Assembly: GCA_016931965.1 (NCBI GenBank)
Contig: JAFGDT010000079.1
Coordinates: forward strand, 16,694-80,693
Source: a bacterium
GTDB lineage: Bacteria > Zhuqueibacterota > QNDG01 > DSAB01
Reading direction: 5' to 3'
DNA length: 64,000 nucleotides
The first letter of the stretch is position 1. Each line of letters opens with the position of its first letter. A program made the translations under genes and the position numbers. The notes beneath the pieces are model-generated. The model saw only the letters and a program-made list of their open reading frames with translations, did not search any database and was not told the origin of the DNA. Below, one piece after another: positions 36,428 to 55,638 of this stretch.

Positions 36428-39400
36428 ATGATGAAGGACCGTATCTGGATTGGCATCGATATTGGATCAATCAGCTTGAAGATGGCTCTCTATTTCAGGG
36501 GTCGTTTTTTCAATAATTCGATTTCAAAGCTCATTGATTCTCAACTTTTTTTTATGCCAGGAGGGATTCTTGAATCAACATTTGATCAAGGATCTCTTTT
36601 ACTTTCTCGTTATATCCGTCATCAAGGTGATCCCTTTTCCAAAGTCGTTCAACTGTTCACGTCTATTTTTCAAACAGTCGATAAAGATCAAATCGTTGGC
36701 GTGTGGGTAACAGGTTCAGGCGGGAAAATGGGAAAACAAATCAAGGGATTTTGTTATTTGAATGAGTATCGTACCACAGCTGAAGCGGTTGGTCGTCTTT
36801 TTCCTGAAATCAATACCGTTTTTGAAATGGGTGGTGAACGCTCAAAATATCTTTTACTCTCAAAAGCCAGAGAAGATCAGATCCAGATTCTTGACTATCA
36901 GATGAATGGTGAATGCGCAGCAGGTACGGGTGCATTCTTCGATCAACAGGTGGAGAGATTGAAGGTTCGGATTGAAGATGTGGGTCGAATTGTAGAAGGA
37001 TTGGAAAAATTCCCCTCTATAGCAGGCCGCTGTTCTGTTTTTGCCAAATCGGATATGATCCATGCGCAACAGCGCGGTTATCAACCAGCCGAGGTGTTGA
37101 AAGGGCTCTGCGAAGCTGTTGTCAGGAATTTCATGGGAAGTGTAACAAATGGCAAGCGAATCGAACCAAAAGTCGCGCTCATTGGAGGCTTGGCATTCAA
37201 TTTGGGGATAGTCAATGCCCTAGAGAATCAGTTCAACTTTTTTAATGGAGAATTGTTTATTCCGGAACACCATGCCTGGATGGGGGCTATCGGGGGAATC
37301 CTTCTGGGATTGAAACAGGAAGAAGAAAGTTGGTCATCCGAAAGACTCAGTAGTCAATTGGTCTATGAAAACAAAAAGAAGTATCCGACGAGCCATCCAT
37401 TGTCACTCGAAAACGTTCAACTCCTCGGAGATCAGGTCATCCCGTATCATCTTCCTCAGAATTGCACAGTTGATGGCTATCTGGGAATTGATGTGGGATC
37501 GGTCAGCACAAATTTGGCTTTGATCGATTCCAAAGGTGAGCTGATTCATGGCATTTACCGGATGACAGAAGGAAGACCGGTTGATGTTGTTAAGGATTCC
37601 GTTCGAGAGCTGTCTGCAATTGTGAAAGGAAAAGTACAAATTAAAGGTGTGGGCACGACGGGTTCGGGCCGTGAAATGATCGGTGCATTGGTTGGCGCCG
37701 ATGTAATAAAGGATGAGATTACGGCTCACAAAACCGGGGCCTTTCAGATTAGTGAAAAATATTTTGGCAGTCAGGTCGATACCATTTTTGAAATCGGTGG
37801 ACAGGATTCAAAATTTATTTCCTTGAAGGATGGCATTGTCGTGGATTTCAGTTTGAACGAAGCCTGTGCGGCGGGCACGGGATCATTTCTTGAAGAACAG
37901 GCAAAACAGATCGGTATTTCGATTCGGGAAGAGTTTGCTGATCTGGCTCTTCGATCTCAGCATCCGTTAAAATTAGGGGAGCGGTGCACGGTTTTTATGC
38001 AGAAAGAGGTAGTTCCCTATCTTCAGCAGGGGATTCCCAAGGAGGATGTTGTTGCCGGTTTGGCTCTATCGGTGGTTCAAAATTATTTGAACCGTGTTGT
38101 AAAAAAACGAAAAATCGGCGATGTGATTTTTTTTCAGGGAGGAACGGCTTATAATGACAGTGTGGCTGCAGCTTTTGCTACCATTCTGAAGAAAACGATT
38201 ATTGTTCCTCCTCATAATGGCATCATCGGTGCAATCGGTGCAGCTCTTTTGGCAAAAGAACATATGGAGAGCAAAGAAAAGACCTCTTTTCGCGGATGGG
38301 ATATGGGAGAGGTTTCCTGGAAGTTGAGGGAGTTTATCTGTCAAGGATGCTCGAATCACTGTACAATACAGGAATTTGAGGTTGAGGGGGAAAAGAGTTA
38401 TTGGGGAGACAAATGTTCTGATCGATATCGAAAGCGAACAGTGACGAAAAAACAGGCTTCAATTCCGGATTGCATATCCCTTTATTTAGATCTTCTGTTG
38501 AAGCAGAACACTGTCAAATACGATCCAATCGACAAAAAGCGAGGCCGTATGGGTATTCCTCGAAGTCTTCAATTTTATGACCGTTTCCCTTTTTGGAAGA
38601 CCTATTTTGAATCACTGGGTTTTGATATTGTTCTTTCTGGGCTCACACGGAAAGACATTGTTCATGCAGGACTCGAAGTCACAGTTACCGAACCCTGTTT
38701 TCCCATTCAGGTGGCTATGGGCCATCTTGTCGATCTTTTGTCACAGAATTTGGATTTTATTTTTCTACCCAATGTTGTGAATGAGGAAGATTTTTCAGGA
38801 GGGACCGCCTCTTATATTTGTCCGTGGAGTCAGACCATCCCGATGGTGGCATTGCACACGCCCGCCATAGAACGCATTCGGGATATTTTATTTTATCCGA
38901 ATATTCAATTCCGTGAAGGATGCAAATTTGTAGAAAAGCAATTGCAAAAAGAAGTCAACCGCTGGGGGATTGGTGCAAAGGAAAATAGATGCGCTGTTCG
39001 AAGTGCATATCAAGCTCAAGAAAGGTTCAAATGCGAAACGCGTAAAATAGGGAGGGACGTCCTGTCTCAAGTGATGGTTGAGGAAAGATCGTGTGTGATC
39101 CTATTGGGACGTCCGTACAATCTCTATGATTTCGGATTGAATCTCAACATACCGAAAAAACTGAGGGATCTATATGGCGTTAATGTTTTGCCAATGGGTT
39201 TATTGCCGCTTGACGGGATTGACGTCCGACCCGTGCATGATCACATGTTCTGGAATTATGGCCGTCAGATTATTCAGGCTGCCATGTTCACCAAAGGTCA
39301 TCAGAATATGCATGTTGTCTATCTCAGTAATTTTAAATGCGGTCCGGATTCCTATATTCGCCACTATATCGAAGAGGCATCGGGTAAACCGTTTCTATTT

Positions 39401-39481
39401 TTACAACTGGACAGTCATGCAAATGATGCGGGTATGATGACGCGTGTTGAGGCGTTTCTTGAAAGCAAAGGGATGCTGTAA
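36428..39481 (+). CDS. Acyl-CoA dehydratase activase-like protein (two BadF/BcrAD ASKHA ATPase domains plus DUF2229-like domain)
   Basis: GIDIGSIS / GIDVGSVS, CAAGTG x2, RCSVF / RCTVF, CQGCSNHC, PCFP, CPW and FKCGPDS. Confidence 0.9.
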   Translation: MMKDRIWIGIDIGSISLKMALYFRGRFFNNSISKLIDSQLFFMPGGILESTFDQGSLLLSRYIRHQGDPFSKVVQLFTSIFQTVDKDQIVGVWVTGSGGKMGKQIKGFCYLNEYRTTAEAVGRLFPEINTVFEMGGERSKYLLLSKAREDQIQILDYQMNGECAAGTGAFFDQQVERLKVRIEDVGRIVEGLEKFPSIAGRCSVFAKSDMIHAQQRGYQPAEVLKGLCEAVVRNFMGSVTNGKRIEPKVALIGGLAFNLGIVNALENQFNFFNGELFIPEHHAWMGAIGGILLGLKQEEESWSSERLSSQLVYENKKKYPTSHPLSLENVQLLGDQVIPYHLPQNCTVDGYLGIDVGSVSTNLALIDSKGELIHGIYRMTEGRPVDVVKDSVRELSAIVKGKVQIKGVGTTGSGREMIGALVGADVIKDEITAHKTGAFQISEKYFGSQVDTIFEIGGQDSKFISLKDGIVVDFSLNEACAAGTGSFLEEQAKQIGISIREEFADLALRSQHPLKLGERCTVFMQKEVVPYLQQGIPKEDVVAGLALSVVQNYLNRVVKKRKIGDVIFFQGGTAYNDSVAAAFATILKKTIIVPPHNGIIGAIGAALLAKEHMESKEKTSFRGWDMGEVSWKLREFICQGCSNHCTIQEFEVEGEKSYWGDKCSDRYRKRTVTKKQASIPDCISLYLDLLLKQNTVKYDPIDKKRGRMGIPRSLQFYDRFPFWKTYFESLGFDIVLSGLTRKDIVHAGLEVTVTEPCFPIQVAMGHLVDLLSQNLDFIFLPNVVNEEDFSGGTASYICPWSQTIPMVALHTPAIERIRDILFYPNIQFREGCKFVEKQLQKEVNRWGIGAKENRCAVRSAYQAQERFKCETRKIGRDVLSQVMVEERSCVILLGRPYNLYDFGLNLNIPKKLRDLYGVNVLPMGLLPLDGIDVRPVHDHMFWNYGRQIIQAAMFTKGHQNMHVVYLSNFKCGPDSYIRHYIEEASGKPFLFLQLDSHANDAGMMTRVEAFLESKGML

Positions 39482-39535
39482 ATTTTATTTGTTTCCGGCT
39501 GGTATCTCGTTATATGGAAAAGGGATTTTATCGTC

Positions 39536-40825
39536 ATGAATACCGAGACTACCCAAGACAATCATACACTTTCGTTGGAAGGAAGACATCTCTTCATTCC
39601 GAGAATGAGCACAGTCGGTTCTGAAGCATTGGCTGCGGTGTTTCGTTCTCTGGGTATTGCTGCAGAGGTCTCCCCTCCCTCTGATGAATCGACCTTGTCG
39701 CTTGCTGCACGGTTCACGACCGGTGAAGAGTGCCTTCCACAAAGAATCACATTAGGCAATTTTCTTAAAATTATTCTCCGAAAGGATTTTGATCCACAGC
39801 GATATGCTTTTTTTCTTCCCACTTCATCGGGTCCCTGCCGTTTTGGACAGTATGCACCTTTTCTGAGAAAAATTCTGAGAGAGTTGGATTATCCGCAAGC
39901 CCTTGTTTTTTCGCCAACGAGCAGCAACGGGTATGGGAGTTTTGGCACTTCTGTGTTCCGTTTTTATCGGTCGGTATGGCGGTGTGTGGTTGTTTCGGAT
40001 ATTTTAAGGAAACTGCAATTGATGTTTCGTCCTTATGAAAGCAATTCGGGTGAGACAGATACGGTTCAAGAAAATGCGCTCGCTGAGATCTGTTCAATAT
40101 TGGCTGATGGTTCACTGAGCTTGAAAAAGCAATTGGATAGTCTGGTCGACAGTTTGGAAAAAATCCGGGACCAATTTCTTGGAATCCCGTTGATATCAAA
40201 AAGAAACACCAAACCCCTAATCGGCATCGTGGGAGAAATTTTTCTTCGCTTGAACAGTTTCAGTAATCAGTATATCATTAGAAAGATTGAATCTTTGGGA
40301 GGGGAAGTGTGGATGGCGGATGTGTCGGAATGGGTGTGGTACACCCATATTGATCAAGAGAGAAAATTGCGAAGTACAGGGAGAAAATTCAGCATGGCCA
40401 TGTTTGGTACGCGATTGAAAAGCCATTATCAAAAGGGTGACGAAGACGTATTGCTCAAACCTTTTCGCCATCTGTTTCAATCGCGGGAAGAAGCTTCTGT
40501 CCGAAGACTGCTCCAGTACAGCATGCCCTATCTGCCGTCTCATATGGCTCTGGGTGAAATGACCCTGAATACAGGTAAAGCGATTGCATACCATCATGCA
40601 GGGTGTGACGGCGTAATCGATGCCAGTCCATTCACCTGCATGAACGGTATTGTAACCGAGGCCATTTATCCCAAAGTCAGCCGTGATTATGGTCATATGC
40701 CGATCCGCATTTTTTATTTTGATGGTGTACCGTTTGATCTGGAAAGTGACTTGGAAATCTTTTTTGAGCAGGTTAAATCGTTCAAACAGAACAAAAGGGG
40801 AAAGACTCAGTCGAACTCGATTTGA
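39536..40825 (+). CDS. CoA-activase partner protein (2-hydroxyacyl-CoA dehydratase-related, DUF2229-like)
   Basis: GEECLP, GPCRFGQY, IVGEIFLR and PFTCMNG cysteine motifs. Confidence 0.8.
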   Translation: MNTETTQDNHTLSLEGRHLFIPRMSTVGSEALAAVFRSLGIAAEVSPPSDESTLSLAARFTTGEECLPQRITLGNFLKIILRKDFDPQRYAFFLPTSSGPCRFGQYAPFLRKILRELDYPQALVFSPTSSNGYGSFGTSVFRFYRSVWRCVVVSDILRKLQLMFRPYESNSGETDTVQENALAEICSILADGSLSLKKQLDSLVDSLEKIRDQFLGIPLISKRNTKPLIGIVGEIFLRLNSFSNQYIIRKIESLGGEVWMADVSEWVWYTHIDQERKLRSTGRKFSMAMFGTRLKSHYQKGDEDVLLKPFRHLFQSREEASVRRLLQYSMPYLPSHMALGEMTLNTGKAIAYHHAGCDGVIDASPFTCMNGIVTEAIYPKVSRDYGHMPIRIFYFDGVPFDLESDLEIFFEQVKSFKQNKRGKTQSNSI

Positions 40826-41300: not shown

Positions 41301-41879
41301 CTATTCAATACATTTTACAATCAATCCTCTTTCCCTATCCATGTTGGCGCAATGTTCACAATAATAGAACTGTCCGTATTCTATTTCGGAAGAAGGATCA
41401 GTCACCAAATATTTTTTTACAGGTCCTTTGTGTTGGGTTGTGTATGTGCTTTCACATTGATGTTCAATAAATTTGATCTGATCTCGAGCGGAAATAATTT
41501 TCTTAATTTGTTTCAACAAGACTTCTGGTTCTACAGGTTTCTCAAGATAATAGTCTGCAGGACATATTGGCGATCCCACCCTTTCTGTTAAATTGAAACC
41601 TGTCACTTTCTGAACGCTTGAGATGATGATAATCGGTATGGGATTTTTTTTCTCTTTATCTTTGCTTTGTCGACATTCTCTCACAAATCGGAAACCGGCA
41701 GAGATGTCTTCCATCATGATATCCAAAAGAATGAGATTCGGTTTTATTTGGGGTATCTGGTTGAGACCTTCCTTGGCTGAATAAGCTTTATGACAACTGT
41801 ATCCTGCATTTTCTAAAATGGTTTCTATTGCAGATACGAAATCTGGATCATCATCGACCAATAGGATTCGATTATTCAT
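41301..41879 (-). CDS. Response regulator receiver with short Cys/His-rich C-terminal domain
   Basis: LLVDDD, LLDIMME, IISS and LEKP; tail HQC...H...YYCEHC. Confidence 0.85.
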   Translation of the reverse strand: MNNRILLVDDDPDFVSAIETILENAGYSCHKAYSAKEGLNQIPQIKPNLILLDIMMEDISAGFRFVRECRQSKDKEKKNPIPIIIISSVQKVTGFNLTERVGSPICPADYYLEKPVEPEVLLKQIKKIISARDQIKFIEHQCESTYTTQHKGPVKKYLVTDPSSEIEYGQFYYCEHCANMDRERGLIVKCIE

Positions 41880-41896: not shown

Positions 41897-43105
41897 TTAT
41901 GGGTTATTGGATTCATTGATAAGTACTTTCATTACTTCTCTGGCGATCGCTAATTCTTCATTCGTTGGGACAATGAGAACAAATGTCATTCCCTTGCTAA
42001 TGACGGTATTGTTTTTTTCGTTTTGTTTTTCGTCTATCTGAATCCCGAGAAAATCCAATTCTTCACAGATCTTCTCTCTGATAAAAGCGGATTTCTCACC
42101 GATTCCAGCGGTAAAAACAATAGCGTCTAATCCACCCATCACCGCCGCATACGCGCCAATATATTTTTTAACTTGTCTTGTAAATATGTTTAAGGCCAAT
42201 TTGTGCCGCTCACTCCCTGAGTGGGCTTTTTCTTCAATCGTGCGCATATCGCTGTCTCCGTCGGTCAGGCCAAAGAGTCCACTCTGATTATTGAGTAATA
42301 GATCCATTTGGTTGGGTGAAAGACCTTCGTCTGCCATGATTTGAAGTGGTATAGAGGGATCGATATTGCCGCATCGCGTTCCCATAACCAATCCCTCTAA
42401 TGGCGTAAATCCCATGGATGTATCCATTGAAATGCCTCTTTTGATTGCGGTCATACTTGCACCGTTACCAAGATGGCAGGTTACCATTTTAAGTTCTTCA
42501 ATGGGTTTTCCGATGATTTTTGCTGCTTCTTCTGCCACATACCGATGGGATGTTCCATGGAATCCATATCGACGTATTCTCTTCTCTTCATACCACTCGT
42601 AGGGTAGTGCATATGTGTATGCATCGGGTTCCATTGTTTGATGAAAGGCCGTGTCGAATACGGCAATCTGTCTGGCAAATGGTATGTAAAAGAGACTTGA
42701 TTCAATCCCTTTGATATTCGGCGGGTTGTGAAGCGGAGCCAGATGTGCGTTGTCCTTGATTTTCTGAAACACCTTTTCACTGATCAACATGGATTTTGTG
42801 AATTCTTCTCCTCCATGTACAACACGATGGCCGATCGAATCAATTTCGTGAATGTTTTTGATTATGCCGTATTTTGAACTACAGAGTGTTTTTAAAGCAA
42901 TTTTAATCGCTCCATCGTAGTCTTTGATCGGTTGCGCTTCATCAAGTTTCTTTTTATGGTTGATATAATAGGTGATACTTGAGTCTTGATTACCACCAAT
43001 CCGATCGATAAATCCCCCAGCCAACATTTTTTCTCTTTTTTTATTCATCGAGAAAAGTTGAAATTTTAACGATGAACTACCACAATTAAGTACCAGTATC
43101 TTCAT
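41897..43105 (-). CDS. ackA: Acetate kinase
   Basis: VLNCGSSSLK, GHRVVHGG, APLHNP, FHGTSH, HLGNGAS and TNEE. Confidence 0.97.
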   Translation of the reverse strand: MKILVLNCGSSSLKFQLFSMNKKREKMLAGGFIDRIGGNQDSSITYYINHKKKLDEAQPIKDYDGAIKIALKTLCSSKYGIIKNIHEIDSIGHRVVHGGEEFTKSMLISEKVFQKIKDNAHLAPLHNPPNIKGIESSLFYIPFARQIAVFDTAFHQTMEPDAYTYALPYEWYEEKRIRRYGFHGTSHRYVAEEAAKIIGKPIEELKMVTCHLGNGASMTAIKRGISMDTSMGFTPLEGLVMGTRCGNIDPSIPLQIMADEGLSPNQMDLLLNNQSGLFGLTDGDSDMRTIEEKAHSGSERHKLALNIFTRQVKKYIGAYAAVMGGLDAIVFTAGIGEKSAFIREKICEELDFLGIQIDEKQNEKNNTVISKGMTFVLIVPTNEELAIAREVMKVLINESNNP

Positions 43106-43117
43106 TATGCTATTCTC

Positions 43118-44203
43118 TCACGGTAAAAGGACTGTAAAAGTTGTTCCTACATTGATTTCTGATTGTACTTCTATCGACCCATAGTGGGCCTCAGCGATTT
43201 GTTTGGCGATAGAAAGACCGAGACCGCTTCCTTGAATAGATACGTCCTGTTTCACACGATAGAATTGTTCGAATATGAGTGGGAGTTTTTCTTTTGGAAT
43301 TCCGATTCCATTATCTCGAATCGCCACTTTTGTATAATCGCCTATTCCTTCCAGCGTAATATCGACCATACCATTATTTTTGTTATATTTGATTCCATTA
43401 TCAATGAGGTTGGTAAAGAGCATTTGCAAAGTCTCCCGATTACCCATGATCTCAGGGTATTTTTCCGGAATATGCAGTTGGAGTGTCACCTGTTTTTCTT
43501 TAGCAAGAGGTTTTAATTGATCAATCACATCACTGAGAATCACCTTTAGATCTACCGGCTCCATCTCCCTGATGAGTTCACCTGTTTCAATCCTGGACAT
43601 ATTGAGCCAGTCATTAATGAGGGCAATCAAGTAATTGATTCTCGTACTCATTTTCAGTAGGATGTTTTTTATTTTTTCCGGGATCATTCCTGCCATTCCC
43701 TTTGTAATGGCCATTAAATTTTGTTGAACAGCCGCTAATGGGGATCGCAATTCATGACTGACCAAGGTGATAAAATTTTCCCTTAATTTTTCTTTTTCCT
43801 TTCGTAAGGTTTCGGTTTCAAGAATGAGCTTTCTTCTTTCTAAACCGCGTTTTGTGACGATACGCAATTCATTCGGAGTGAAGGGTTTGGGGAGAAAATC
43901 GTAAGCCCCCAACTTGATTGCTTCCACAGCCGACTCTATGGTCGCATAACCTGTTATCACAATCATGATGACATTGGAATCAAGTTGATGCACTGTATCA
44001 ATGAGGGTCATCCCATCCATTCCTGGCATTTTCAGATCTATCAATACAAGATCGGGTTTCATTTCATTGATTTTTTGTAAGCCAATATGACCATTGTTTG
44101 CCAATTCCACCTGATGATTCTGTTCCGATATAATTTGTTTGCACGAGTCTCTGATAACCTCATCATCATCAATAACCAGAATTTTTGCTTTATCAAACAT
44201 CAT
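43118..44203 (-). CDS. Cytoplasmic hybrid histidine kinase (REC-HisKA-HATPase)
   Basis: IDLKMPGMDG receiver; SHELRSPL H-box; NGIKYN, DNGIGI and GSGLGL. Confidence 0.93.
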   Translation of the reverse strand: MMFDKAKILVIDDDEVIRDSCKQIISEQNHQVELANNGHIGLQKINEMKPDLVLIDLKMPGMDGMTLIDTVHQLDSNVIMIVITGYATIESAVEAIKLGAYDFLPKPFTPNELRIVTKRGLERRKLILETETLRKEKEKLRENFITLVSHELRSPLAAVQQNLMAITKGMAGMIPEKIKNILLKMSTRINYLIALINDWLNMSRIETGELIREMEPVDLKVILSDVIDQLKPLAKEKQVTLQLHIPEKYPEIMGNRETLQMLFTNLIDNGIKYNKNNGMVDITLEGIGDYTKVAIRDNGIGIPKEKLPLIFEQFYRVKQDVSIQGSGLGLSIAKQIAEAHYGSIEVQSEINVGTTFTVLLP

Positions 44204-44215
44204 ATTTACTTTTGT

Positions 44216-45019
44216 TTATATGTGTTGGTGTTCAATATTAAGAAGTTTATTGATCCTGTGCAATAAATCCGCAGGATGAATCGGTTTTTCAACATAATCA
44301 TCCGCTTCAAAATATTCACTATTTGTTTCAGGTGAGAATTGTAATCCTGTTTTTTCGGTAATTGCAGAGATGGCAAGTATAGGAATATGTTTTAGAGTTG
44401 GGTTATGTTTCAGTTCGTAACATATCGTAAATCCATCATTTAATCTTTCCATCATAATATCCAGTAGAATTAAGTCGGGTTTTGTCTTATTGATTTTTTC
44501 AAGAGCTGTATCCTTATTGTCGGCGATATCTACTTTATATCCTTTTTGGGACAGGATTGTTTTGATTGCGGATGTATAATCCGGGTCATCATCTACAATC
44601 AAGATTTTGTAAATATTGTCTATTTTTTGTTTTTTTCTATCTTTTCCGAGTTTTTTAAATACATTCTCAACCGCCAACTTCAGTTCTTCTCTTTTAAATG
44701 TTTTGATGTAATAATAAAAAATATTCTCTTTTCGTATTTTAGCTTCTAACTCTAAACTGTTCTGAGCAGCAGTTATGATTACTTCAACTTTTGGATCGAT
44801 GGTTTTCAAAATGGGTACAGCTTTGTAACCTTCCAAATCGGGTAATTCAACATCCATAATAATGCAGTCAAACCGAATATTTTGAATTTTTTCTATTGCT
44901 TTGGTGATTCCAGAGCACACATCGATTTCACAGTCATCGGCCGAAAAAAGGGAAAGATACTCATTTCTCATCTGGGTATCTGGATCAATGATCAGAATGT
45001 GTTTCTGTTTATCCTTCAT
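44216..45019 (-). CDS. Tandem (dual) receiver-domain protein
   Basis: REC1 IIDPD..IMDVELP (partly atypical); REC2 IVDDD..LLDIMME..VEKP; no output domain. ATG at 45019 follows GGAGGA. Confidence 0.88.
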   Translation of the reverse strand: MKDKQKHILIIDPDTQMRNEYLSLFSADDCEIDVCSGITKAIEKIQNIRFDCIIMDVELPDLEGYKAVPILKTIDPKVEVIITAAQNSLELEAKIRKENIFYYYIKTFKREELKLAVENVFKKLGKDRKKQKIDNIYKILIVDDDPDYTSAIKTILSQKGYKVDIADNKDTALEKINKTKPDLILLDIMMERLNDGFTICYELKHNPTLKHIPILAISAITEKTGLQFSPETNSEYFEADDYVEKPIHPADLLHRINKLLNIEHQHI

Positions 45020-45041
45020 GAATCCTCCGACCATTCGAATT

Positions 45042-45057
45042 TACAAAGAACGTACCA
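45042..45057 (-). promoter_or_regulatory. Putative sigma54 (-24/-12) promoter
   Basis: Minus strand TGGTACG-TTCT-TTGTA versus consensus TGGCACG-N4-TTGCW; predicted +1 near 45031, just before the RBS. Confidence 0.65.
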
Positions 45058-45097
45058 ACATCATTTTTCAATAAAAAAACCGCTCAGGAATTTGTCC

Positions 45098-45110
45098 CAA
45101 GTGGTTTATA
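45098..45110. promoter_or_regulatory. IHF-like site
   Basis: CAAGTGGTTTATA versus YAANNNNTTGATW (one mismatch), lying between the promoter and the upstream repeats. Confidence 0.4.
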
Positions 45111-45163
45111 AGTAATGAATTATATTTGAAATTAATGAGAATAGATATACAGTGAATGGCTTT

Positions 45164-46912
45164 TCATGCTGGGGTATTTTCCCCCACTCTGGGGTTTAAT
45201 TCCCCGTTCATTGTGTGGTTTTGAAGCCTTTTCAGAAATTGAAAATTGCAAATTCTTAATTCCGGCATACCGTGCTCATTTTTAATGAGGTTGCCTTTGT
45301 TATCGATTGAGATCAGAAAATGACTTCCCGTAAGATTTAGATCTTCTATACCGATACGGAATAATTTTTCTTTGATCATTTGTAGAAAATAGAGATACTT
45401 TTTTTCCGTGATAATTCCGTTTTGATAAGCAAATAATGCATTGATGCCTTGGTAATAATCTCCATCTTTGGCTGCAAGTTTTTCATCGGGGCCATTCCAA
45501 AAACCCCATATGATAATGTAATCACGATCCTTTTTGAGAATGGGATTTCTGTCTGGAGTCAATATCTTTTTATGAGATTCATATCTTGAATTGTCTAAAA
45601 AACTTTTTGAAATAAATGTTTTAGATCCTGTCATATAAATGGCTCTCGGGTAAATAGTTGGAATACCTTTACTATTTAATTCCATGGCTATTGAAAATTC
45701 TTCAAATGGACTGTTGTAACCATGTTCTATGATCTTTTTTTCTTCGGTTTTAAATGGATCCATTCTGGGTTGGATACCAACTTTGGAAACTTTCCAGACA
45801 AGATTGATATCGTCTTTTGTTACGGTATGATAAACCTGACTCATTCTGGACAATTTGGTTTTTGGTGTTTTTTCCCAACGTTCTGGAAGGAAATAATCGA
45901 ATAAAAAGGGATCATCGCCCACTACCCATAGTGCACCTTTTGTACTTTCAACATGGCCATATATATAATCAATATTAAAAATATTCACTTTTTTTAAATG
46001 TGGGTGAAATTTGTTTTCGACCTGTTTGGTAAAACGATCTCTCTGTCTTATCAGATAATCGTGTCTTCTTGTCTGTTTCAGTTGTTTTTCTCTCTCCGGT
46101 GTTCTTTGGAGCAATTCGAAATCAATCAAACCATAAAGTGTTGCACCTGTTCTGTCTTTTTTCAAGTGTTTGTTATTTTCGGGTCTTACGATAATATGAT
46201 CCGGTTTCCTGTCTCTGACTGTAAATCCTCTCATACCGATCTTGGATTCGACTTGAAGGGTAAGAAATTCCATGTAATCTTTATCCAAAAATCCTTCCTG
46301 ACAAGCCTGAACAGCATCGATTCCTTTGATCCATTCATAGATAACAGCGTACAAACGGAACATATCCAATTCCACGTCTTTGTGACTCTTGATTTTCGAT
46401 TTGAGTTTATAAGCTTTTCTTCCGGTCCTCCACAAATCTACTTTTTTGTAAGGTGTGTAAATGGCAAGAGGTTTTTGCGGGTAAATTCTATCGGATTGAG
46501 ATGTATGACATGCCTTTCGGAGTTCCATAACCAGTGAAAATTCTTCAAAAGGGCTGTTAAATTCCGCATAGGCCAGTTCTTCACATTCAAGCTCACCAGG
46601 TATGTCCTGCCCCATTCGATTCCATTTGATGACAATATCCTTCTGTTTCCCGTTTACTTTTTTGGTTCGAATCTTATAGATACTGCTGGTTCCAGATAAT
46701 CTGACCGAATTTTGTTGAAACCAGTTTTCGTCTGTCCAATAATTATCGGGTTCTAAAATCTCAATAAAAGGTAATCCATATTGGGTAACGTAAAGGTCGT
46801 CCTTGTTTTCCAATTGAATATGAACATACTCCACATTAAAAATACTGATATTCTCATATTTCTTACCAGTTGTTCTATTCATTGGCTGTTGTTGAATGTG
46901 TATTTGTTCCAT
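45164..46912 (-). CDS. Uncharacterised protein with two tandem protein-kinase-like domains
   Basis: Internal duplication (NSPFEEFS twice). Domain 1: VIK, DRKPDH, IDFE. Domain 2: VWK, NLTGSH, CNFQ. Confidence 0.7.
   Translation of the reverse strand: MEQIHIQQQPMNRTTGKKYENISIFNVEYVHIQLENKDDLYVTQYGLPFIEILEPDNYWTDENWFQQNSVRLSGTSSIYKIRTKKVNGKQKDIVIKWNRMGQDIPGELECEELAYAEFNSPFEEFSLVMELRKACHTSQSDRIYPQKPLAIYTPYKKVDLWRTGRKAYKLKSKIKSHKDVELDMFRLYAVIYEWIKGIDAVQACQEGFLDKDYMEFLTLQVESKIGMRGFTVRDRKPDHIIVRPENNKHLKKDRTGATLYGLIDFELLQRTPEREKQLKQTRRHDYLIRQRDRFTKQVENKFHPHLKKVNIFNIDYIYGHVESTKGALWVVGDDPFLFDYFLPERWEKTPKTKLSRMSQVYHTVTKDDINLVWKVSKVGIQPRMDPFKTEEKKIIEHGYNSPFEEFSIAMELNSKGIPTIYPRAIYMTGSKTFISKSFLDNSRYESHKKILTPDRNPILKKDRDYIIIWGFWNGPDEKLAAKDGDYYQGINALFAYQNGIITEKKYLYFLQMIKEKLFRIGIEDLNLTGSHFLISIDNKGNLIKNEHGMPELRICNFQFLKRLQNHTMNGELNPRVGENTPA
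45170..45206. promoter_or_regulatory. Tandem inverted repeats, putative enhancer (UAS) for the sigma54 activator
   Basis: TGGGG-TATTTTC-CCCCA (45170-86) and TGGGG-TTTAATT-CCCCG (45190-206), centres 20 bp apart. Confidence 0.6.
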
Positions 46913-46961
46913 TATTTTCCCTTGTTCATCATATTAAAACCTACTGTTTTTATCATACAAT

Positions 46962-48305
46962 CTATGTCGTTATTTTGTATTTCTTCATCTTAAGCCGAAG
47001 GGTTTTTCGGTCTATGTCTAAAGCTTTGGCTGTTTTTGATTTGTGGCCGTTGTATACTTTTAGCGTTTTTTCGATGTGATCTTTTTCAACATTTGCGAGT
47101 GATTTTTCTTTTATACGATTTGAATCGATAGTCAGTCCATAATAGAAGAGATCAGAAGGTTCAATCCATTCATGATCGGTTAATACAATCGCTCTTTCAA
47201 TGGCGTTCTCCAGTTCTCGTACATTTCCCGGCCAATCATAATCCACGAGCGCTTCCATAGCTCTTTCTGATATTCCCTTGATTGTTTTCCTCCTTTTTTG
47301 GTTATATTTTTCAATGAAATAGTTGGCTAATAGGGGAATATCATTTTTTCTTCTACGCAATGCAGGACATTGAATCGGCACAACGCTTAATCTATAAAAA
47401 AGATCTTCTCTGAATGTTTTGTTTTCGACTTCTTTTTTAAGGTCCTTATTGGTTGCAGCGATAATTCGGATATCCATTTGAGTTATCTGTGTACTGCCGA
47501 CTTTGCAGATTTCACGCTCTTGAATAGCACGTAATAATTTTGCCTGAATATTGGTGCTGATATTGCTGATTTCATCAAAAAAGATTGTCCCCCCGTTTGC
47601 CACTTCCAAACGGCCGTGCTTTGTTGTGCTTGCCCCGGTAAAGGAACCTTTTACATGACCGAAAAGCTCGCTTTCAAAAAGATTTTCAACCAGTGTACTG
47701 CAGTCTACTGTTACAAAGGGTTGATTTTGACGTTTGCTGTGTTTATGGATGGATCTGGCCACCAATTCCTTTCCCGTACCACTCTCCCCAGTGATCAGCA
47801 CGGTACTATCGGTAGGTCCGACTTTCCGAATAAGGTTGTGTATTTTTTGCATTGCTTCACTTTGGCCTATAATGACATCTGGATCAATACTTAATTCAAG
47901 TTCATTCGCTAAGTATACATTTTCAATATGTAGTTTCCTCTTTTCGATTGCGCGATGGACAATGATACGCAGTTCATCTGGTGTGAATGGTTTGGGAAGA
48001 AAATCGTATGCTCCCATTTTCATGGCTTCAACAGCTGAATCGACTGTTGCGTATCCCGTTATCACAATCACAATCGATTCGGGATTTATATTTTTTATTT
48101 TTTTGAGAACTTCTATTCCATTTAAACCAGGCATTTTTAAATCAAGTATGACGATATCAAAAAACGTTTTTTTAATCAGATCAAGTCCCGAATGGCCATT
48201 CTCAGCCAGCTGTATATCATATTTGTTGCTTGAAAGTATCTGGTTGCATGAATCTCGCATTGCTTCATCATCATCGATAATGAGAATGTGGTTTTTCAAA
48301 ATCAT
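46962..48305 (-). CDS. NtrC-family sigma54-dependent response regulator
   Basis: REC; GESGTGKE, ESELFGH, GSFTGA, FREDLFYRL and WPGNVRELEN; Fis-type HTH. Confidence 0.96.
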   Translation of the reverse strand: MILKNHILIIDDDEAMRDSCNQILSSNKYDIQLAENGHSGLDLIKKTFFDIVILDLKMPGLNGIEVLKKIKNINPESIVIVITGYATVDSAVEAMKMGAYDFLPKPFTPDELRIIVHRAIEKRKLHIENVYLANELELSIDPDVIIGQSEAMQKIHNLIRKVGPTDSTVLITGESGTGKELVARSIHKHSKRQNQPFVTVDCSTLVENLFESELFGHVKGSFTGASTTKHGRLEVANGGTIFFDEISNISTNIQAKLLRAIQEREICKVGSTQITQMDIRIIAATNKDLKKEVENKTFREDLFYRLSVVPIQCPALRRRKNDIPLLANYFIEKYNQKRRKTIKGISERAMEALVDYDWPGNVRELENAIERAIVLTDHEWIEPSDLFYYGLTIDSNRIKEKSLANVEKDHIEKTLKVYNGHKSKTAKALDIDRKTLRLKMKKYKITT

Positions 48306-50227
48306 TTGTTTTTCTCCGCAGTTATCGGCATTTTGACGGTAAATGTTGTCCCCTTATCCGCTTGGCTTTTTACCTCGATTGTACCGTTGTGTTTTTGAAT
48401 GATACCATAACTGATAGCCAGTCCAAGACCAGTACCGCGACCCACCTCCTTTGTAGTAAAAAAAGGTTCAAAAAGTTTCTTTAAATAGGCTTCAGGGATT
48501 CCACACCCTGTATCCGTGAATTCAATTTCTATCAATTGACCATCTTTCGATACTTTTGTGGTAATGGTCAATTTCCCCTTTTCACCCATTGACTCTGCAG
48601 CGTTTAGAATAATATTAATAAAAACCTGCTGTATTTGGGCTTTGTCTAACATGGTTTTTGGAAGATTGGGATGGAATTTTTTTACGATGCGAATATTTTG
48701 AAAAAGAGATTGATTTTCGACCAATGACAGAGTGCTTTGTAAAAGTTCATTAACATTGGTTAAGTCCAATTTTGGTTCAGTTTGACGTGAAAAATCGAGC
48801 AATCCTTTTACAATATCTTTACAACGGGTTGCTTGTGTAACGATTTTTTCTAATTGTTCCTTTTTCGGATCATCGGATTCCATTTTTTCTAATAGTAGAT
48901 GACTGTAAACCAGAATGCCTCCCAGAGGATTGTTCAGTTCATGTGCTACACCTGCTGCCAGCTGTCCGATTGTGGCGAGACGTTCCGATTCCATAATTTT
49001 TTGTTGGGTATAGGTTTTCAGCTGTTCATCTCTGTTTTTAAGTGAATCAACCATGAAATTAAACGTCATGGCTAATTCTCCGATTTCATCCTGTGATTCA
49101 ATGGGTACCTTGTGGGTTAAATTTCCTTCTGCCAGTTGATGTGATGCAAAGACCAGGTGTTTAATGGGTTTGAGTATATGAACGGCGAGTAAAGTTGAAC
49201 CAATAAATGCAACAACAACACCGGCAAGTGTAATCCCAATAAACATCCACATCGTTTCTCTTCTCATGTCTACAAATTTTTCTTCTAAAATGCCAACATA
49301 AAGTATCCCAATGATTTCTCCCGATATGTTTCGTATGGGTTCATAAGCCGTTATATACCAATTGTTAACCACGAAAGCTCTTTCGATCCAGGGTAAACCT
49401 TTAACCAAAACTTGATCATACACTTCCTCTGATACCCGTGTGCCGATCGCTCTGTTCCCGTCTTCTCTCATGACATTGGTTGATATGCGAAGGTCTTGTT
49501 GAAATATCGTGGCTGTTCCCATGTCTTTCCCTTTGTAGGTTTGGCCCTGGTAAACCGTGTCTTTTATTTTGTCCACAATTGAATAATTTCGATTTAATAA
49601 TGTACCTCCATAAAGTATTCCGATGAGTCTGCCGGTATCATCCAATACAGGAGCTGCCGCTTTAATCATCATACCTGATGTTTCTTCATTTTCTTCTCTT
49701 GGTTTGGCTCTGGGGGTAGGAATAAACTCCATGCGGACCTGTTCTGCAAGAGATTCATCCTCTTTCATTAATTCGTTTCTTGGAACAATTTGGGTTGAGA
49801 GAACGACTTCTTTTGTTGATAATACTCTTTTTATAATTTCATCACCGGCTTGATTGTCTCCAAACCTGTCGGGATTGCGTGTACGATAAGAAACAAATCC
49901 ATTTTCATCTGTTAATGTTAATATATCGATGGATTCATTTTTTTTCACTTTGTCCAATTCTACTTTGATTTGTTCAAGGTTATTTCTTGAAAGACCTTCT
50001 TTGAGAAATACCCTTAAAGCAGTCAATCGAATAATGTCCTTGATTTTTTCAGAATTTTCTCTGTATATTTCTCTTGCTGAATTGAGGTCCATTCTCACTT
50101 TATCCTGAGCCTGATTGATAATGGATTTTCCAATTAGGTGCATGCCTGTCCAGGTTGCAAACAAACCTGTTATCACAACAATGAGGGAAAGACTAGCAAT
50201 GACTTTATTTCGTAATGAGATTTTCAT
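48302..50227 (-). CDS. Membrane sensor histidine kinase (Cache, HAMP, HisKA, HATPase)
   Basis: Two TM; ATIFQ..RISTNV..RAIGT..YITAYEPI Cache pattern; AHELNNPL; FEPFFTTK and GTGLGL. Confidence 0.95.
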   Translation of the reverse strand: MKISLRNKVIASLSLIVVITGLFATWTGMHLIGKSIINQAQDKVRMDLNSAREIYRENSEKIKDIIRLTALRVFLKEGLSRNNLEQIKVELDKVKKNESIDILTLTDENGFVSYRTRNPDRFGDNQAGDEIIKRVLSTKEVVLSTQIVPRNELMKEDESLAEQVRMEFIPTPRAKPREENEETSGMMIKAAAPVLDDTGRLIGILYGGTLLNRNYSIVDKIKDTVYQGQTYKGKDMGTATIFQQDLRISTNVMREDGNRAIGTRVSEEVYDQVLVKGLPWIERAFVVNNWYITAYEPIRNISGEIIGILYVGILEEKFVDMRRETMWMFIGITLAGVVVAFIGSTLLAVHILKPIKHLVFASHQLAEGNLTHKVPIESQDEIGELAMTFNFMVDSLKNRDEQLKTYTQQKIMESERLATIGQLAAGVAHELNNPLGGILVYSHLLLEKMESDDPKKEQLEKIVTQATRCKDIVKGLLDFSRQTEPKLDLTNVNELLQSTLSLVENQSLFQNIRIVKKFHPNLPKTMLDKAQIQQVFINIILNAAESMGEKGKLTITTKVSKDGQLIEIEFTDTGCGIPEAYLKKLFEPFFTTKEVGRGTGLGLAISYGIIQKHNGTIEVKSQADKGTTFTVKMPITAEKNK

Positions 50228-50452: not shown

Positions 50453-51082
50453 ATGATCGTTAGCAAAAAACATATATCAAGGCTTTCAAAGTACCGAAAA
50501 GCCCTTTTTCGATTCAGTGAATTGGGTTTTGTTAAAGTCTTTTCCGATACACTTGGAGAAGCAGTAGGCGTTACTGCATCACAAGTGAGAAAGGATTTCT
50601 CACTTTTTGGAATTCATGGACATAAACGGGGGGGATATCAAATTGATACGCTTATTGATAAACTGCAAAACATCTTGGGAAAAGATTTTGAACAAAAAGT
50701 GATCATTGTTGGAATTGGCAACATTGGAAATGCTTTAATCAAATACAAAGCTTTTGAAAATGAGGGAATTAAAATTGTTGCTGGCTTTGATATCGATCCT
50801 GCAAAAGTGAATAGAAAAGGGACAGTACCCATATTCCCTCTCAAGGAAATACATGACTATGTTAAGAAACATAACATTACTATCGGGATTATCGCTGTAC
50901 CGGATATTGTGGCTCAGGAAGTTTTCGATGTGATGCTCTCTGCAGGGATAAAAGGTATCCTCAATTTTGCACCGATAAGGTATAAGGGGGCAGAAAATGT
51001 TTTCATCAACAATGTGAATTTTCAGGTCGAACTTGAAAATGTTATTTATTTTGTTAACATGTTTAAACACGAAAAGGATTAA
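50453..51082 (+). CDS. rex: Redox-sensing transcriptional repressor Rex
   Basis: RLSKY, QVRKDFSLFG..G..GY, GIGNIG Rossmann motif and ILNFAP. Confidence 0.96.
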   Translation: MIVSKKHISRLSKYRKALFRFSELGFVKVFSDTLGEAVGVTASQVRKDFSLFGIHGHKRGGYQIDTLIDKLQNILGKDFEQKVIIVGIGNIGNALIKYKAFENEGIKIVAGFDIDPAKVNRKGTVPIFPLKEIHDYVKKHNITIGIIAVPDIVAQEVFDVMLSAGIKGILNFAPIRYKGAENVFINNVNFQVELENVIYFVNMFKHEKD

Positions 51083-51103
51083 TCAATAAATTGGAGTTTA
51101 ACC

Positions 51104-52129
51104 ATGAGAGCTGTTAAATTAAGAAAACAAGATTTGCCAGCTTTTCTTAAGTGTGTTCAGTCATTTGGTGAGTTATGGGGTCCTGTTCGGGAAAAAGATC
51201 GACAGGTGTTAAAAAAAACAGATGATGTCAATCAGATTGATTTAACAACCATCAGAACGAGTCTTCCGTTCAAGAAATTACTCTTTCCCCCCAGATTCAG
51301 TATGTTTCATTTTTCTGGTAATAAATATACAACAAGTCTCGAACATCTTCCGAATCGAATCATTTTTGGGCTTCATCCTTGTGATATTCATGCATTGCTC
51401 ATTATGGACGATTTTTTTACGCGATCTTTTGATGATCCTTACTATACAGAGCGACGGAAAAAGACAGCCATTATTGGTTTTTCTTGTATTCCAGATGAAA
51501 AGTGTTTTTGTCATGCGACAAAAACGGATACAGTTGAGGAAGGTTTTGACCTCTTTTTAACAGACCTGGATGATTTTTTCTTGATTTGGGTAGGATCCAG
51601 TCTCGGAGATGATATGACAAGGGAGTGTCCTAAAATCATTGACGAGGGGATTCTGCCTGAAGATCTGAAAAAATATGTTGAATGGAGGAAGTACCGAAAT
51701 TCTCAATTTAAAATGGACATTGATCTGACGAGTATGCCAGAAATCTTCGATCTCAGTTATGACAGCGTAATTTGGGAAGAGGAAGGCGAAAAGTGTCTTT
51801 CCTGTGGTGCATGTACCATAGTCTGTCCAACCTGTCCCTGTTATCATGTGTATGATAAAATTGAAATGGGAAAGATCGAAGGTGAACGGATGCGTCAGTG
51901 GGATTCTTGTCTTTTTAAGGAATATTCAATGGTGGCTGAGGGACATAATTTTCGTGAGTCGCGAGCAGAGCGATTAAAATTGCGATTTACCCACAAACTG
52001 CAAGCTTTTGTAGGAGAGTATGGGAAGCCCGCCTGTGTTGGATGTGGTCGGTGTATTGAAACCTGTCCTGTGGATATCGATATTGCCACCATTGTGAGAC
52101 GCCTTAGAGGTGAGGAGGTGAAGGTATGA
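51104..52129 (+). CDS. Group 3b hydrogenase (sulfhydrogenase) beta subunit, AsrA-like 4Fe-4S protein
   Basis: HPCD, CFC, CLSCGACTIVCPTCPC, WDSC and CVGCGRCIETCP. Confidence 0.9.
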   Translation: MRAVKLRKQDLPAFLKCVQSFGELWGPVREKDRQVLKKTDDVNQIDLTTIRTSLPFKKLLFPPRFSMFHFSGNKYTTSLEHLPNRIIFGLHPCDIHALLIMDDFFTRSFDDPYYTERRKKTAIIGFSCIPDEKCFCHATKTDTVEEGFDLFLTDLDDFFLIWVGSSLGDDMTRECPKIIDEGILPEDLKKYVEWRKYRNSQFKMDIDLTSMPEIFDLSYDSVIWEEEGEKCLSCGACTIVCPTCPCYHVYDKIEMGKIEGERMRQWDSCLFKEYSMVAEGHNFRESRAERLKLRFTHKLQAFVGEYGKPACVGCGRCIETCPVDIDIATIVRRLRGEEVKV

Positions 52130-52980
52130 CCGGATTGACAGCGCTGAAAAATGCTTATTTGCCTGAATCCATGCGGCTTATTCGACGATATCCATTGATC
52201 GAAGGTGTTCATTTTTTTCAAGTAAGAGCTGTGGATATGACAAGGGCACTTTCTCTCGATTATTTGCCTGGTCAGTTTATGATGGTATCCATTCCCGGTA
52301 TAGGGGAAGCTCCTTTTTCAATTTCCTCCACCCCTTCGAGACCCGGTTTGCTTGAATTTGGGATAAGACGTGTGGGCCGGGTAACCAATGCGATATTTCA
52401 GCTAAAAGAAAATCAGATTATCGGTGTGCGCGGACCGTATGGGAATGGATTCCCTGTGGAAAAAATAAAAGGCAATGATCTGATCATCGTGATGGGAGGA
52501 TTGGGAGCAATTCCTTTGCGTTCACTTCTTCTTTATGCACTGGACAATCGAGATCAATTTGGCAATATCTATCTTCTTCATGGGGCAAAAACACCTTCAG
52601 AAATGCTTTTTCGGGAAGAATTTTTAAATTTTAGATATCGAGATGATCTGACTTGTCTTCTAACCGTTGATCAGGATGATACAGGAAAGTGGCCCTGTTA
52701 TACGGGGCTTGTAACCCGACTTTTTCAGCAGTTAACAGATATCATTCCCCAAAAAACCTATGTGGCTGTTTGTGGTCCTCCTGTCATGTACAAATTTGTT
52801 GTGGCAGAGTTGTTGAAATTGAATATTCCCAAGCACCAGATTTTAATGACACTGGAGCGCCGCATGAAATGTGGTGTTGGAAAATGTGGACATTGTATTA
52901 TTGGGGGGTATATTTATACATGTGTCGATGGTCCGATTTTCACTTATTGGGATGTGATTCATATGAAAGGATTGATCTGA
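52126..52980 (+). CDS. Group 3b hydrogenase gamma subunit, AsrB-like FAD/NAD(P) protein
   Basis: PGQF, GEAPFSISS, RGPYGNGF, CGPPVM and ERRMKCGVGKCGHC..C. Confidence 0.92.
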   Translation: MTGLTALKNAYLPESMRLIRRYPLIEGVHFFQVRAVDMTRALSLDYLPGQFMMVSIPGIGEAPFSISSTPSRPGLLEFGIRRVGRVTNAIFQLKENQIIGVRGPYGNGFPVEKIKGNDLIIVMGGLGAIPLRSLLLYALDNRDQFGNIYLLHGAKTPSEMLFREEFLNFRYRDDLTCLLTVDQDDTGKWPCYTGLVTRLFQQLTDIIPQKTYVAVCGPPVMYKFVVAELLKLNIPKHQILMTLERRMKCGVGKCGHCIIGGYIYTCVDGPIFTYWDVIHMKGLI

Positions 52981-53064
52981 AGGATTATTCACATTTGAAA
53001 TGATAGGCATTTTACAAGTGGCTTATCATTATGATCTGAATGGTATTGAAGCAATAGGAGTTGT

Positions 53065-55142: not shown

Positions 55143-55638
55143 TGAGTGGATTCAATTGTTAGATGATTCTCTATGTTCAGAGTCAATGGTCGTCATAGGT
55201 CTGGGGAATTCGGATCGTGCAGACGATGGTGTTGGACTTGTGTTGGTTTCGAAACTTCAGGCTTGCTTCCCGGATCGTATTTTTTTAGAAACGGAACACA
55301 CGCTGGAAACACTTGTATTGGAGTTACTTGAGCGTGAAGATGTTCGAATGGTTCTGTTTATTGATGCTGCTCATTTTGGAGGCAAGCCAGGTGACATCAG
55401 GTTTTTTCATGCTGAAGATATAGAACGATTTATTCCAATGTTATCCACACACAAAGTTCCCATATCCCTACTCATGCACTTGATCCGTGATCGTGGCAAA
55501 AATCCTGTCCTACTGGGTATTGAACCGAAGTCAGTGGCATTGTTCGGATCAATGAGTCCTGAAATACAGAGTACGATGAATCGGTTGGAAATGGTGATAA
55601 AAGGCTGTTTATTAAAAGGTCGTTCAAAGAATGATTAA
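55123..55638 (+). CDS. Hydrogenase maturation endopeptidase (HycI-like)
   Basis: GLGNSDRADDGVG, FIDAA, STH and GIEP. Confidence 0.9.
   Translation: MNVKTNDEWIQLLDDSLCSESMVVIGLGNSDRADDGVGLVLVSKLQACFPDRIFLETEHTLETLVLELLEREDVRMVLFIDAAHFGGKPGDIRFFHAEDIERFIPMLSTHKVPISLLMHLIRDRGKNPVLLGIEPKSVALFGSMSPEIQSTMNRLEMVIKGCLLKGRSKND

Follow-up and report, generated by a model that had tools for sequence, protein, structure and literature searches.

Gene T and its two halves

The stretch of DNA analyzed here (the window; 64,000 nt of contig JAFGDT010000079.1, assembly GCA_016931965.1, from a bacterium of the phylum Zhuqueibacterota) carries on its minus strand a gene, here designated T (45164..46912), whose 582-aa product is a tandem of two protein-kinase-like (PKL) domains, as judged from the open reading frame (ORF), its translation, and an AlphaFold2 model. 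T lies within a seven-gene, same-strand cluster that comprises a sensor histidine kinase (HK), a sigma54-dependent response regulator (RR), T itself, a double receiver-domain protein (REC2), a hybrid kinase (RECHK), acetate kinase (AckA), and a single receiver-domain protein (REC). The N-terminal PKL domain (residues 17-300; 46013..46864) is predicted to be active on the basis of its structure matches and of residues kept in 150-154 of 154 relatives, and the C-terminal PKL domain (residues 301-566; 45215..46012) is assigned as a pseudokinase from fold matches and residue counts. Residues 567-582 and the stop codon (45164..45214) make up a lineage-specific disordered tail, with a predicted local distance difference test (pLDDT) below 50 at residues 566-582 and with homologues ending soon after the motif FLKR. 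T is soluble and cytoplasmic, and its two domains derive from the duplication of a single minimal PKL domain.

An earlier examination of the locus from its letters alone (the sequence-only reading) had described the protein as internally duplicated, and alignment bears this out. Residues 1-300 match residues 301-582 in blastp with an E-value of 1e-16 (25% identity over 279 columns), profiles of the two halves drawn from a 48-sequence family alignment match in hhalign with 99.4% probability (E 4.9e-21, 234 columns), and the two NSPFEEF motifs coincide with a 36-nt DNA repeat (83% identity, spacing of 843 nt). Similarity at this level lies far outside what chance would give. The motifs listed in that reading are all present, namely FNSPFEEFSLVMEL (residues 118-131) and its counterpart YNSPFEEFSIAMEL (399-412), GTSSIYK, VIK (with K96), DRKPDH (234-239), IDFE (263-266), NLTGSH (526-531), and CNFQ (555-558). 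On the minus strand, the key sites of the N half are K96 (46625-46627), the alphaC motif NSPFEEF (46538-46558), D234-R-K236-P-D-H239 (46196-46213), and D264-F-E266 (46115-46123), and those of the C half are K374, the second NSPFEEF (45695-45715), N526-L-T-G-S-H531 (45320-45337), and N556-F-Q558 (45239-45247). Profile-profile alignment of the halves pairs K96 with K374, E123 and E124 with E404 and E405, D234 with N526, K236 with position 528, H239 with H531, D264 with N556, and E266 with position 558.

Residue counts were taken over 154 full-length relatives of T. The lysine, glutamate, and two aspartates proposed as kinase hallmarks of the first half are conserved across these homologues (K96 in 150/154, E124 in 153/154, D234 in 153/154, and D264 in 154/154), as are the other catalytic positions of that half (K236 and H239 in 153/154 each, E266 in 154/154), and the equivalent residues are kept in 21 single-domain relatives. 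The second half had been proposed to be a pseudokinase because both of its acidic catalytic positions are amides, and the family agrees: position 526 is Asn in 121/154 relatives and Asp in only 4, and position 556 is Asn in 135/154, Ser in 10, and Asp in none. Other residues of the C half are retained (K374 in 119/154, E404 and H531 in 146/154 each), and the 48-sequence alignment contains 38 invariant columns in the C half versus 44 in the N half. Because no relative has Asp at the metal-binding position 556 of the C half (0/154), and because this half is constrained as strongly as the N half, it represents a conserved pseudokinase rather than a decaying copy. In the N half, Lys stands two residues after the catalytic Asp, as in the HRDLKPEN motif of the Hanks kinases, a placement that is a signature of Ser/Thr protein kinases. 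Compared with the Hanks D-x-K-x-x-N loop, D234 and K236 are present in 153/154 relatives of T, but the residue at +5 is His rather than Asn in 153/154.

Predicted fold and family

The suggestion that T has a PKL fold stood up to structure prediction. The AlphaFold2 model of T (48 homologues) has a pLDDT of 84.9 and a predicted template modeling score (pTM) of 0.74, and every Foldseek match listed for it is a kinase-fold protein, including ULK2 (E 4.5e-4), Rad53, FIKK13, WaaP, Rio2, YopO, Bud32, and PknB. In VIA-align, residues 38-273 reach Z 9.5 to both MSMEG_1954 (root-mean-square deviation (rmsd) 3.8, 168 aligned) and PKR (rmsd 3.4, 140 aligned), with DAPK also among the matches (Z up to 9.5), and residues 322-568 reach Z 9.5 to PRPK/Bud32 (7szc; rmsd 3.9, 155 aligned), with RIO kinases and WaaP at Z 8.6-9.1; by the scale of the tool such Z values are intermediate, but the match lists are uniformly kinase-fold. 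An independent model of the ~300-aa single-domain relatives (21 sequences; pLDDT 88.4, pTM 0.87) was compared with 48,161 representative chains without Foldseek, and all 50 of the 50 rows listed are PKL-type, led by WaaP (Z 9.1, rmsd 4.8, 172 aligned) and including aminoglycoside phosphotransferases (APHs; Z 8.0-8.5), Bud32 (8.2), and Rio1/2 (8.1); Foldseek gave 79 matches to the same model at E<=1e-3. Each half of T, matched separately, is predicted to have a bilobal PKL fold.

Among known kinases, RIO1/RIO2, Bud32/PRPK, the WaaP/Kdo kinase, and the ABC1-like Rv3197/MSMEG_1954 share with T the bilobal fold, the short C-lobe, and the lack of an activation segment (Z 8-9.5), as well as the beta3 Lys, the alphaC Glu, the catalytic-loop Asp, and the metal-loop Asp. 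There is no sequence-level relation to these kinases (Pfam, NCBIfam, and PDB hidden Markov model (HMM) searches at E 10), and only the T family has D-x-K-x-x-H, D-F-E, the active-plus-dead tandem, and the link to central carbon metabolism. The Hanks Ser/Thr kinases (PknB, ULK2, DAPK), many of which are top Foldseek matches, share the D-x-K-P-x-(N/H) spacing with Lys at D+2; T differs from them in lacking the activation loop, the APE motif, and helices alphaF-alphaI, in having DFE for DFG and His for Asn, and in giving no Pkinase match. As in the JH1/JH2 domains of JAK and the plant tandem kinase proteins, an active and a degenerate kinase domain are joined by duplication in one polypeptide. 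JAK aligns across both halves of T at Z 9.2, but with an rmsd of 18.3 and with the domain order reversed, the active domain of T coming first, and relative to the eukaryotic tandem kinase-pseudokinases the domains of T are far smaller, bacterial, and of independent origin. This PKL family with an active-plus-dead tandem architecture is new; as a kinase-pseudokinase tandem that evolved independently in bacteria from a minimal kinase domain, it can help to explain how pseudokinases originate and are retained.

Assignment of T to a known family by sequence was attempted with Pfam, NCBIfam, PDB sequences (single protein and profile), and the PADLOC defense models, and none of them yielded a family. 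T has no match at E<=10 in Pfam, NCBIfam, or PDB sequences, the Hanks family HMM (Pfam Pkinase, PF00069) and the RIO, Kdo/WaaP, APH, ABC1, and WaaY family HMMs (Pfam, NCBIfam) included; a profile built from the single-domain relatives retrieved no kinase from the PDB sequences, and no PADLOC family matched T at E<=1. The family is, as the sequence-only reading supposed, uncharacterized, and it is also large and unnamed. A word-indexed search returned 2923 relatives, the best 120 of which are 55-92% identical to T, ~560-570 aa long, all annotated as 'hypothetical', and without any Pfam domain; an exhaustive search of representatives returned 518 clusters. Loci encoding T number at least 538 in species-representative genomes and come from Omnitrophota, Elusimicrobiota, Auribacterota, Spirochaetota, Planctomycetota, Verrucomicrobiota, Lentisphaerota, Nitrospirota, Thermodesulfobacteriota, Myxococcota, and Actinomycetota metagenome-assembled genomes. 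Within the phylum of the window, T occurs in 1 of 145 genomes, that one being the source genome, and a sample of 201 Planctomycetota genomes contains 4 full-length and 3 single-domain matches. The distribution of the family is sparse, patchy, and horizontally shaped. Thousands of members in uncultured anaerobes are without annotation.

Variants of the architecture also occur. Three single-domain relatives of the active half, in the Planctomycetota genomes G150, G256, and G273 (loci L083-L085), lie within longer open frames (381-646 aa). A fused form of 726 aa (P0122) joins an N-terminal GNAT acetyltransferase to the tandem kinase, which points to a possible connection with protein acetylation or acetyl-CoA. 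A literature search, with supplementary lists of PKL families lying outside it, found nothing pertinent on the T family or on a bacterial PEP carboxykinase (PEPCK; PEP, phosphoenolpyruvate) kinase. Part of the text of a 2026 preprint surveying PKL families (10.64898/2026.09.18.752743), its supplements apart, contains no mention of tandem, duplication, or carboxykinase, and parts of a 2020 review of the PEP-pyruvate-oxaloacetate node (PMC8100219) describe PEPCK phosphorylation only for the human enzyme and name no bacterial PEPCK kinase.

Linkage to GTP-dependent PEPCK and proposed function

The neighborhoods of T were surveyed by tblastn with Pfam-identified neighbor proteins at the best 80 of at least 538 T loci from other genomes; some of the contigs are short, so the neighbor counts are lower bounds. 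The most recurrent neighbor is GTP-dependent PEPCK, which adjoins T in 27/80 loci. PEPCK precedes T on the same strand in 20 of these 27 (gaps of 78-325 nt), T precedes PEPCK in 4 (gaps of 110-298 nt), the pair is divergent in one (L003), and in two Verrucomicrobiota loci (L033 and L036) the PEPCK ATG lies 3 nt past the T stop codon. Same-frame matches at the latter two loci raised the question of a fusion there, which the stop codon and the 3-nt spacer rule out. The PEPCK label requires four changes on a tree of T built by maximum likelihood, at least three of them forced by well-supported branches. Two deeply diverged types of PEPCK, with ~30% identity between them, occur next to T; one locus (L056) within a 19-member Planctomycetota clade carries the other type, suggesting that the neighbor was replaced while the linkage was kept.

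Genes for other enzymes recur beside T at lower frequency. PPK2 lies directly downstream in 4/80 loci, all in one subclade; the oxaloacetate decarboxylase alpha subunit (OadA) or pyruvate carboxylase B is divergent from T in 3/80 (Spirochaetota), and an ACT-malic enzyme is divergent in 2/80 (Thermodesulfovibrio). ADP-forming acetyl-CoA synthetase (ACD) occurs near T in L031 and 2-oxoacid dehydrogenase E2 in L014, a Na+/H+ exchanger-CBS protein and an EIIA-HTH protein in 4/80 loci each, and AckA, which is present in the operon of the window, adjoins T in 0/80 of the other loci. T is repeatedly associated with enzymes of the PEP/pyruvate/oxaloacetate/acetate node, above all with GTP-PEPCK. It is very unlikely that this signal reflects only shared ancestry and chance, T having an unrelated role (e.g., in stress or envelope signaling). 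Such an explanation can point to the one Planctomycetota clade that contributes 19 of the 27 PEPCK adjacencies, to the many Omnitrophota and Elusimicrobiota contexts that differ (e.g., the Na+/H+ exchanger-CBS and EIIA-HTH neighbors), and to the uninformative contexts of the single-domain relatives, but it has to contend with at least three to four independent PEPCK adjacencies in three arrangements and with two PEPCK types, in addition to the malic enzyme, OadA, ACD, and AckA neighbors and the fusion and co-occurrence described next.

One relative of T (P0275, 1157 aa) consists of T (55% identity over query residues 18-562), a ~25-residue Ala/Pro-rich linker, and a complete PEPCK; among long T relatives it is the only one (1/1 a PEPCK fusion). 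Many other bacterial PEPCK_GTP proteins of ~1060 aa (P0310-P0331) are fused to GAPDH (PF00044/PF02800) or an aminotransferase (PF00155), and the Omnitrophica proteins P0334, P0335, and P0337 combine PEPCK with large unassigned or radical-SAM/B12 parts; none of these contains T. GTP-PEPCK is present in 12/12 T-bearing genomes checked, i.e., the source genome (G000), G145-G149, and six more Planctomycetota, with G145 also belonging to the Planctomycetota sample. At C5:119471-123222 (L082 and beyond), the source genome's only GTP-PEPCK gene adjoins a same-strand ORF of 1007 aa with a PPDK_N domain (PEP-utilizing, ATP-grasp). Co-folding of T residues 17-300 with the PEPCK of the same genome gave a median of 0.57 (runs of 0.46, 0.57, and 0.63), with three controls all at 0.00, contact agreement between runs of at least 66%, and partner pLDDT of at least 81, which the tool grades as 'weak support'. 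In the benchmark of this measure, the mark is reached by 58/80 solved complexes and 2/110 mismatches, and at or below 0.60 there are only 7 of the 80 solved complexes and both of the mismatches; the pass is informative only because gene order already supported the pairing of T with PEPCK.

The interpretation preferred here, held tentatively and quite possibly wrong, is that T is a Ser/Thr-type kinase with a sensing or docking pseudokinase half and regulates PEPCK; it is preferred because of the D-x-K loop, the gene order, the one fusion, and the weak co-fold. The N half would be an active phosphotransferase that acts on a protein rather than a small molecule; it retains the Lys that anchors ATP, the Glu of alphaC, and catalytic and metal loops of the forms D-x-K-x-x-H and D-F-E. 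The C half, with both catalytic Asp residues now Asn and with conservation as strong as that of the N half, would most likely be a ligand-sensing or docking pseudokinase. T may phosphorylate, or at least bind and regulate, GTP-dependent PEPCK and could in this way decide how much PEP goes to oxaloacetate (C4) and how much to pyruvate/acetate/H2 in anaerobes. Such a role would be comparable in logic to that of AceK acting on isocitrate dehydrogenase. AceK is a soluble two-domain protein of ~570 aa that has a PKL catalytic domain, exerts phosphorylation control over an enzyme of central metabolism, and is encoded with enzymes of a metabolic branch point; its N-terminal domain is not a kinase duplicate. 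The likeness to T lies in the proposed logic only, with PEPCK as the proposed target of T; T has no Pfam match, and AceK is not among the structural matches listed, so that any relation between the two would be distant.

Numerous observations weigh against this interpretation. The catalytic loop has His in place of the usual Asn, and the N domain is minimal: after D264-F-E266 the model has a single helix (272-291) and ~35 residues before the second domain begins, with neither an activation segment nor the substrate-binding C-lobe helices (alphaF-alphaI). The structures closest to the single-domain model include small-molecule kinases (WaaP, APH) and the ATPase-like RIO and Bud32. The neighbors of the three single-domain relatives (SecDF, SecA, HD, LysR, Usp, and a DNA methylase) show no metabolic theme. 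Besides the concentration of PEPCK adjacencies in a single clade noted above, the fusion is one protein record on one 8.3-kb contig, where a lost stop codon or an assembly error may have produced it, and T is found in only 1/63 long PEPCK-containing proteins (P0275 itself). Co-occurrence has low power and is only suggestive, because GTP-PEPCK is common in Planctomycetota (78/201 genomes of the sample over the cut-off, ~39%) and the genomes are related. T is absent within 3 kb of PEPCK at all of the 80 metagenome loci whose PEPCK is 67-84% identical to that of P0275 (0/80), so PEPCK usually works without T, and the PEPCK of the source genome (L082) is on another contig than T. Finally, the co-fold gives weak support and was made with a truncated T.

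Some of the same observations would suit a small-molecule (metabolite or glycan) kinase, i.e., a metabolic enzyme acting at the C3/C4 node instead of a regulator, with the second domain binding substrate. This is an unlikely alternative, for which the proximity of WaaP and of aminoglycoside/macrolide phosphotransferases to the single-domain model (at the Z values given above), the Kdo/WaaP/WaaY clusters found as Atlas feature neighbors of T at 0.93, the minimal C-lobe, the metabolic enzymes next to T (in places translationally coupled), and a sequence identity across phyla (50-63%) that would be very high in a regulator can be cited. The loop of T, however, is D-x-K-x-x-H, with Lys at D+2, and not the H-x-D-x4-N of the APH/choline-kinase type; the Kdo, APH, and choline kinase families of Pfam are not matched even at E 10; the distribution is sparse (1/145 genomes in the window's phylum; 4 full-length and 3 single-domain in 201); and a pathway gap is not evident, with pyruvate kinase and PPDK_N proteins both present in 5/5 T-bearing genomes checked. 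The presence of both families in these five genomes also led to the rejection of T as a stand-in for pyruvate kinase or PPDK.

Alternatively, T could be a nucleotide-driven switch or scaffold, a RIO/Bud32-like ATPase that binds PEPCK or another partner without phosphate transfer. For both halves, RIO1/RIO2 and Bud32/PRPK rank with the best structural matches (Z 8.1-9.5), the substrate-binding lobe is absent, the co-fold with PEPCK gives weak support, and translational coupling together with the one fusion suggests a stoichiometric partnership. Against this stands the retention in nearly all members of the whole catalytic set, with the base Asp and the Lys at D+2, which is also compatible with transfer, and this alternative is considered improbable.

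A more far-reaching proposal, which must be regarded as doubtful, is that T represents the first dedicated bacterial PEPCK kinase or regulatory subunit. T would then be a branch-point controller of the AceK type that moves horizontally: its pseudokinase half would sense a metabolite or nucleotide, and its active half would phosphorylate GTP-PEPCK. Anaerobes of many phyla could use it to switch PEP between the C4 branch and acetate/H2 fermentation, and here it would be wired into a Cache-sensor/sigma54 two-component operon. Little is known of how bacteria control the PEP-pyruvate-oxaloacetate node post-translationally.

The operon of the window and the insertion of T

As stated in the sequence-only reading, T follows a sensor kinase and a sigma54 activator on the same strand. 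The histidine kinase HK (48302..50227) contains sCache_3_3, HAMP, HisKA, and HATPase_c domains, and the regulator RR (46962..48305) contains REC, AAA+, and HTH_8 (Pfam assignments). A 49-nt spacer between RR and T (46913..46961), bearing an AGGGA Shine-Dalgarno-like site in its sequence, forms the left edge of the insertion described below. Downstream of T, and likewise on the minus strand, are the 272-aa REC2 with two REC stretches (44216..45034; Pfam), the REC-HisKA-HATPase hybrid kinase RECHK (43118..44203; Pfam, with orthologues in relatives and in L043), AckA (41897..43105; Pfam PF00871, E 5.6e-147), and a single REC protein with a C-terminal extension (REC192; 41301..41879; Pfam). Between T and REC2 lie a terminator-like hairpin found by a terminator scan (CCACTTAGG...CCTGAGTGG(T)7; 45083..45101) and a sigma54-type promoter-like site, TGGTACGTTCTTTGTA (45042..45057), with two mismatches to the consensus, both on the minus strand.

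Comparison with related genomes demonstrates that T interrupts an older arrangement. Seven genomes of the same taxonomic order encode full-length orthologues of HK (61-67% identity), and none of them has T; at four loci of relatives HK, RR, REC2, RECHK, AckA, and REC, or parts of this set, are found without T and with REC2 directly after RR; AckA occupies the same operon position in the relative G013. DNA similarity to the relatives breaks at the RR stop codon and resumes at two GGGG-N7-CCCC hairpin motifs (45171-45185 and 45191-45205), older intergenic DNA that lies just after the RR stop codon in the relatives without T and within the last ~13 codons of T here. The tail of T is therefore read from older intergenic DNA, which explains why it is disordered and why homologues lack it. 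T is a ~1.7-kb single-gene insertion in the HK-RR transcription unit, ahead of the regulator's presumed target promoter, and the window provides a cleanly mapped example of such an insertion into a conserved regulatory operon. T was acquired horizontally in the source genome. No flanking direct repeats or mobile-element signs were found at the insertion, and the GC content (0.36) and GC3 (0.34) of T are no different from those of its neighbors, giving no sign of recent transfer.

The intergenic region after RR (window positions 45020-45215; loci L175-L177) is conserved across relatives in its hairpin motifs, terminator-like hairpin, and sigma54-type site. The terminator-like hairpin is kept in three relatives, where it directly follows RR, and the positions, core bases, and spacing of the promoter-like TGGYA-N-TTTGT upstream of the double-REC gene are also conserved. 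Exact matches to the sigma54 consensus are absent from the window, and sites with two mismatches number 30 versus 25.2 expected, so that the match of TGGTACGTTCTTTGTA alone is not significant; because such sites are not enriched, the case for this one rests on its conservation in relatives. The conserved region suggests that the sigma54 regulator drives the downstream REC/AckA genes. Since T is placed after the RR stop codon and ahead of the hairpins, terminator, and sigma54-type promoter that predate it, it is probably co-transcribed with the HK and RR that would control these downstream genes.

The location of T inside the HK-RR-REC2-RECHK-AckA-REC operon raises the possibility, proposed in the sequence-only reading, that T acts on the two-component system, phosphorylating or binding the REC proteins or the sigma54 regulator and thus adding a Ser/Thr input to the His-Asp relay. 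Orthologues of HK (60-63% identity) and RR (57-65%) lie beside T elsewhere in varied arrangements: in L043 (Planctomycetota, Pirellulales) HK (63%), RR (64%), REC2 (53%), RECHK (52%), and a Fer4/FAD-NAD pair (47-53% identity to the window) are all divergent from T, in L014 (Spirochaetota) T is followed by HK (60%) and RR (65%), and in L022 (Planctomycetota) an RR 57% identical to that of the window stands beside T. By a rough estimate rather than a computation, chance would give far fewer such HK/RR neighborhoods. In L031, moreover, a sigma54 activator overlaps the start of T, and HK or sigma54-regulator genes occur near T in 7/80 other loci plus the window. These findings uphold the proposed link in part, through gene context in the window and at L014, L043, and L022. 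That T acts on the two-component system is nonetheless distinctly unlikely: relatives run the orthologous operon without T, 72/80 other loci have no HK or sigma54 neighbor, the HK/sigma54 label on the tree of T requires 8 changes for 8 rows (window counted) and is no more clustered than chance, and family-wide the dominant association is that with GTP-PEPCK and other enzymes of the PEP/pyruvate/oxaloacetate node.

Several further features of these loci were observed. L014 (10116-16109) has a pair of sCache_3_3 sensor kinases downstream of T, paralogues with 60% and 43% identity to the HK of the window, and REC proteins lie between them. In the window, positions 50453-55638 encode a Rex-like redox repressor followed by a Fer4_22 protein, a FAD/NAD DHODB-like protein, and NiFe-hydrogenase-like subunits; Rex was labeled by Pfam and the others by orthology to Pfam-scanned genes of L043 or by reading of ORF translations. 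The Fer4 and FAD/NAD orthologues lie directly behind the same two-component set in L043, which suggests that the system may control hydrogen and redox genes. Upstream, on the plus strand (36428-40825), are a 1017-aa BcrAD_BadFG double ATPase with DUF2229 and a 429-aa DUF2229-like partner, of the CoA-enzyme activase type.

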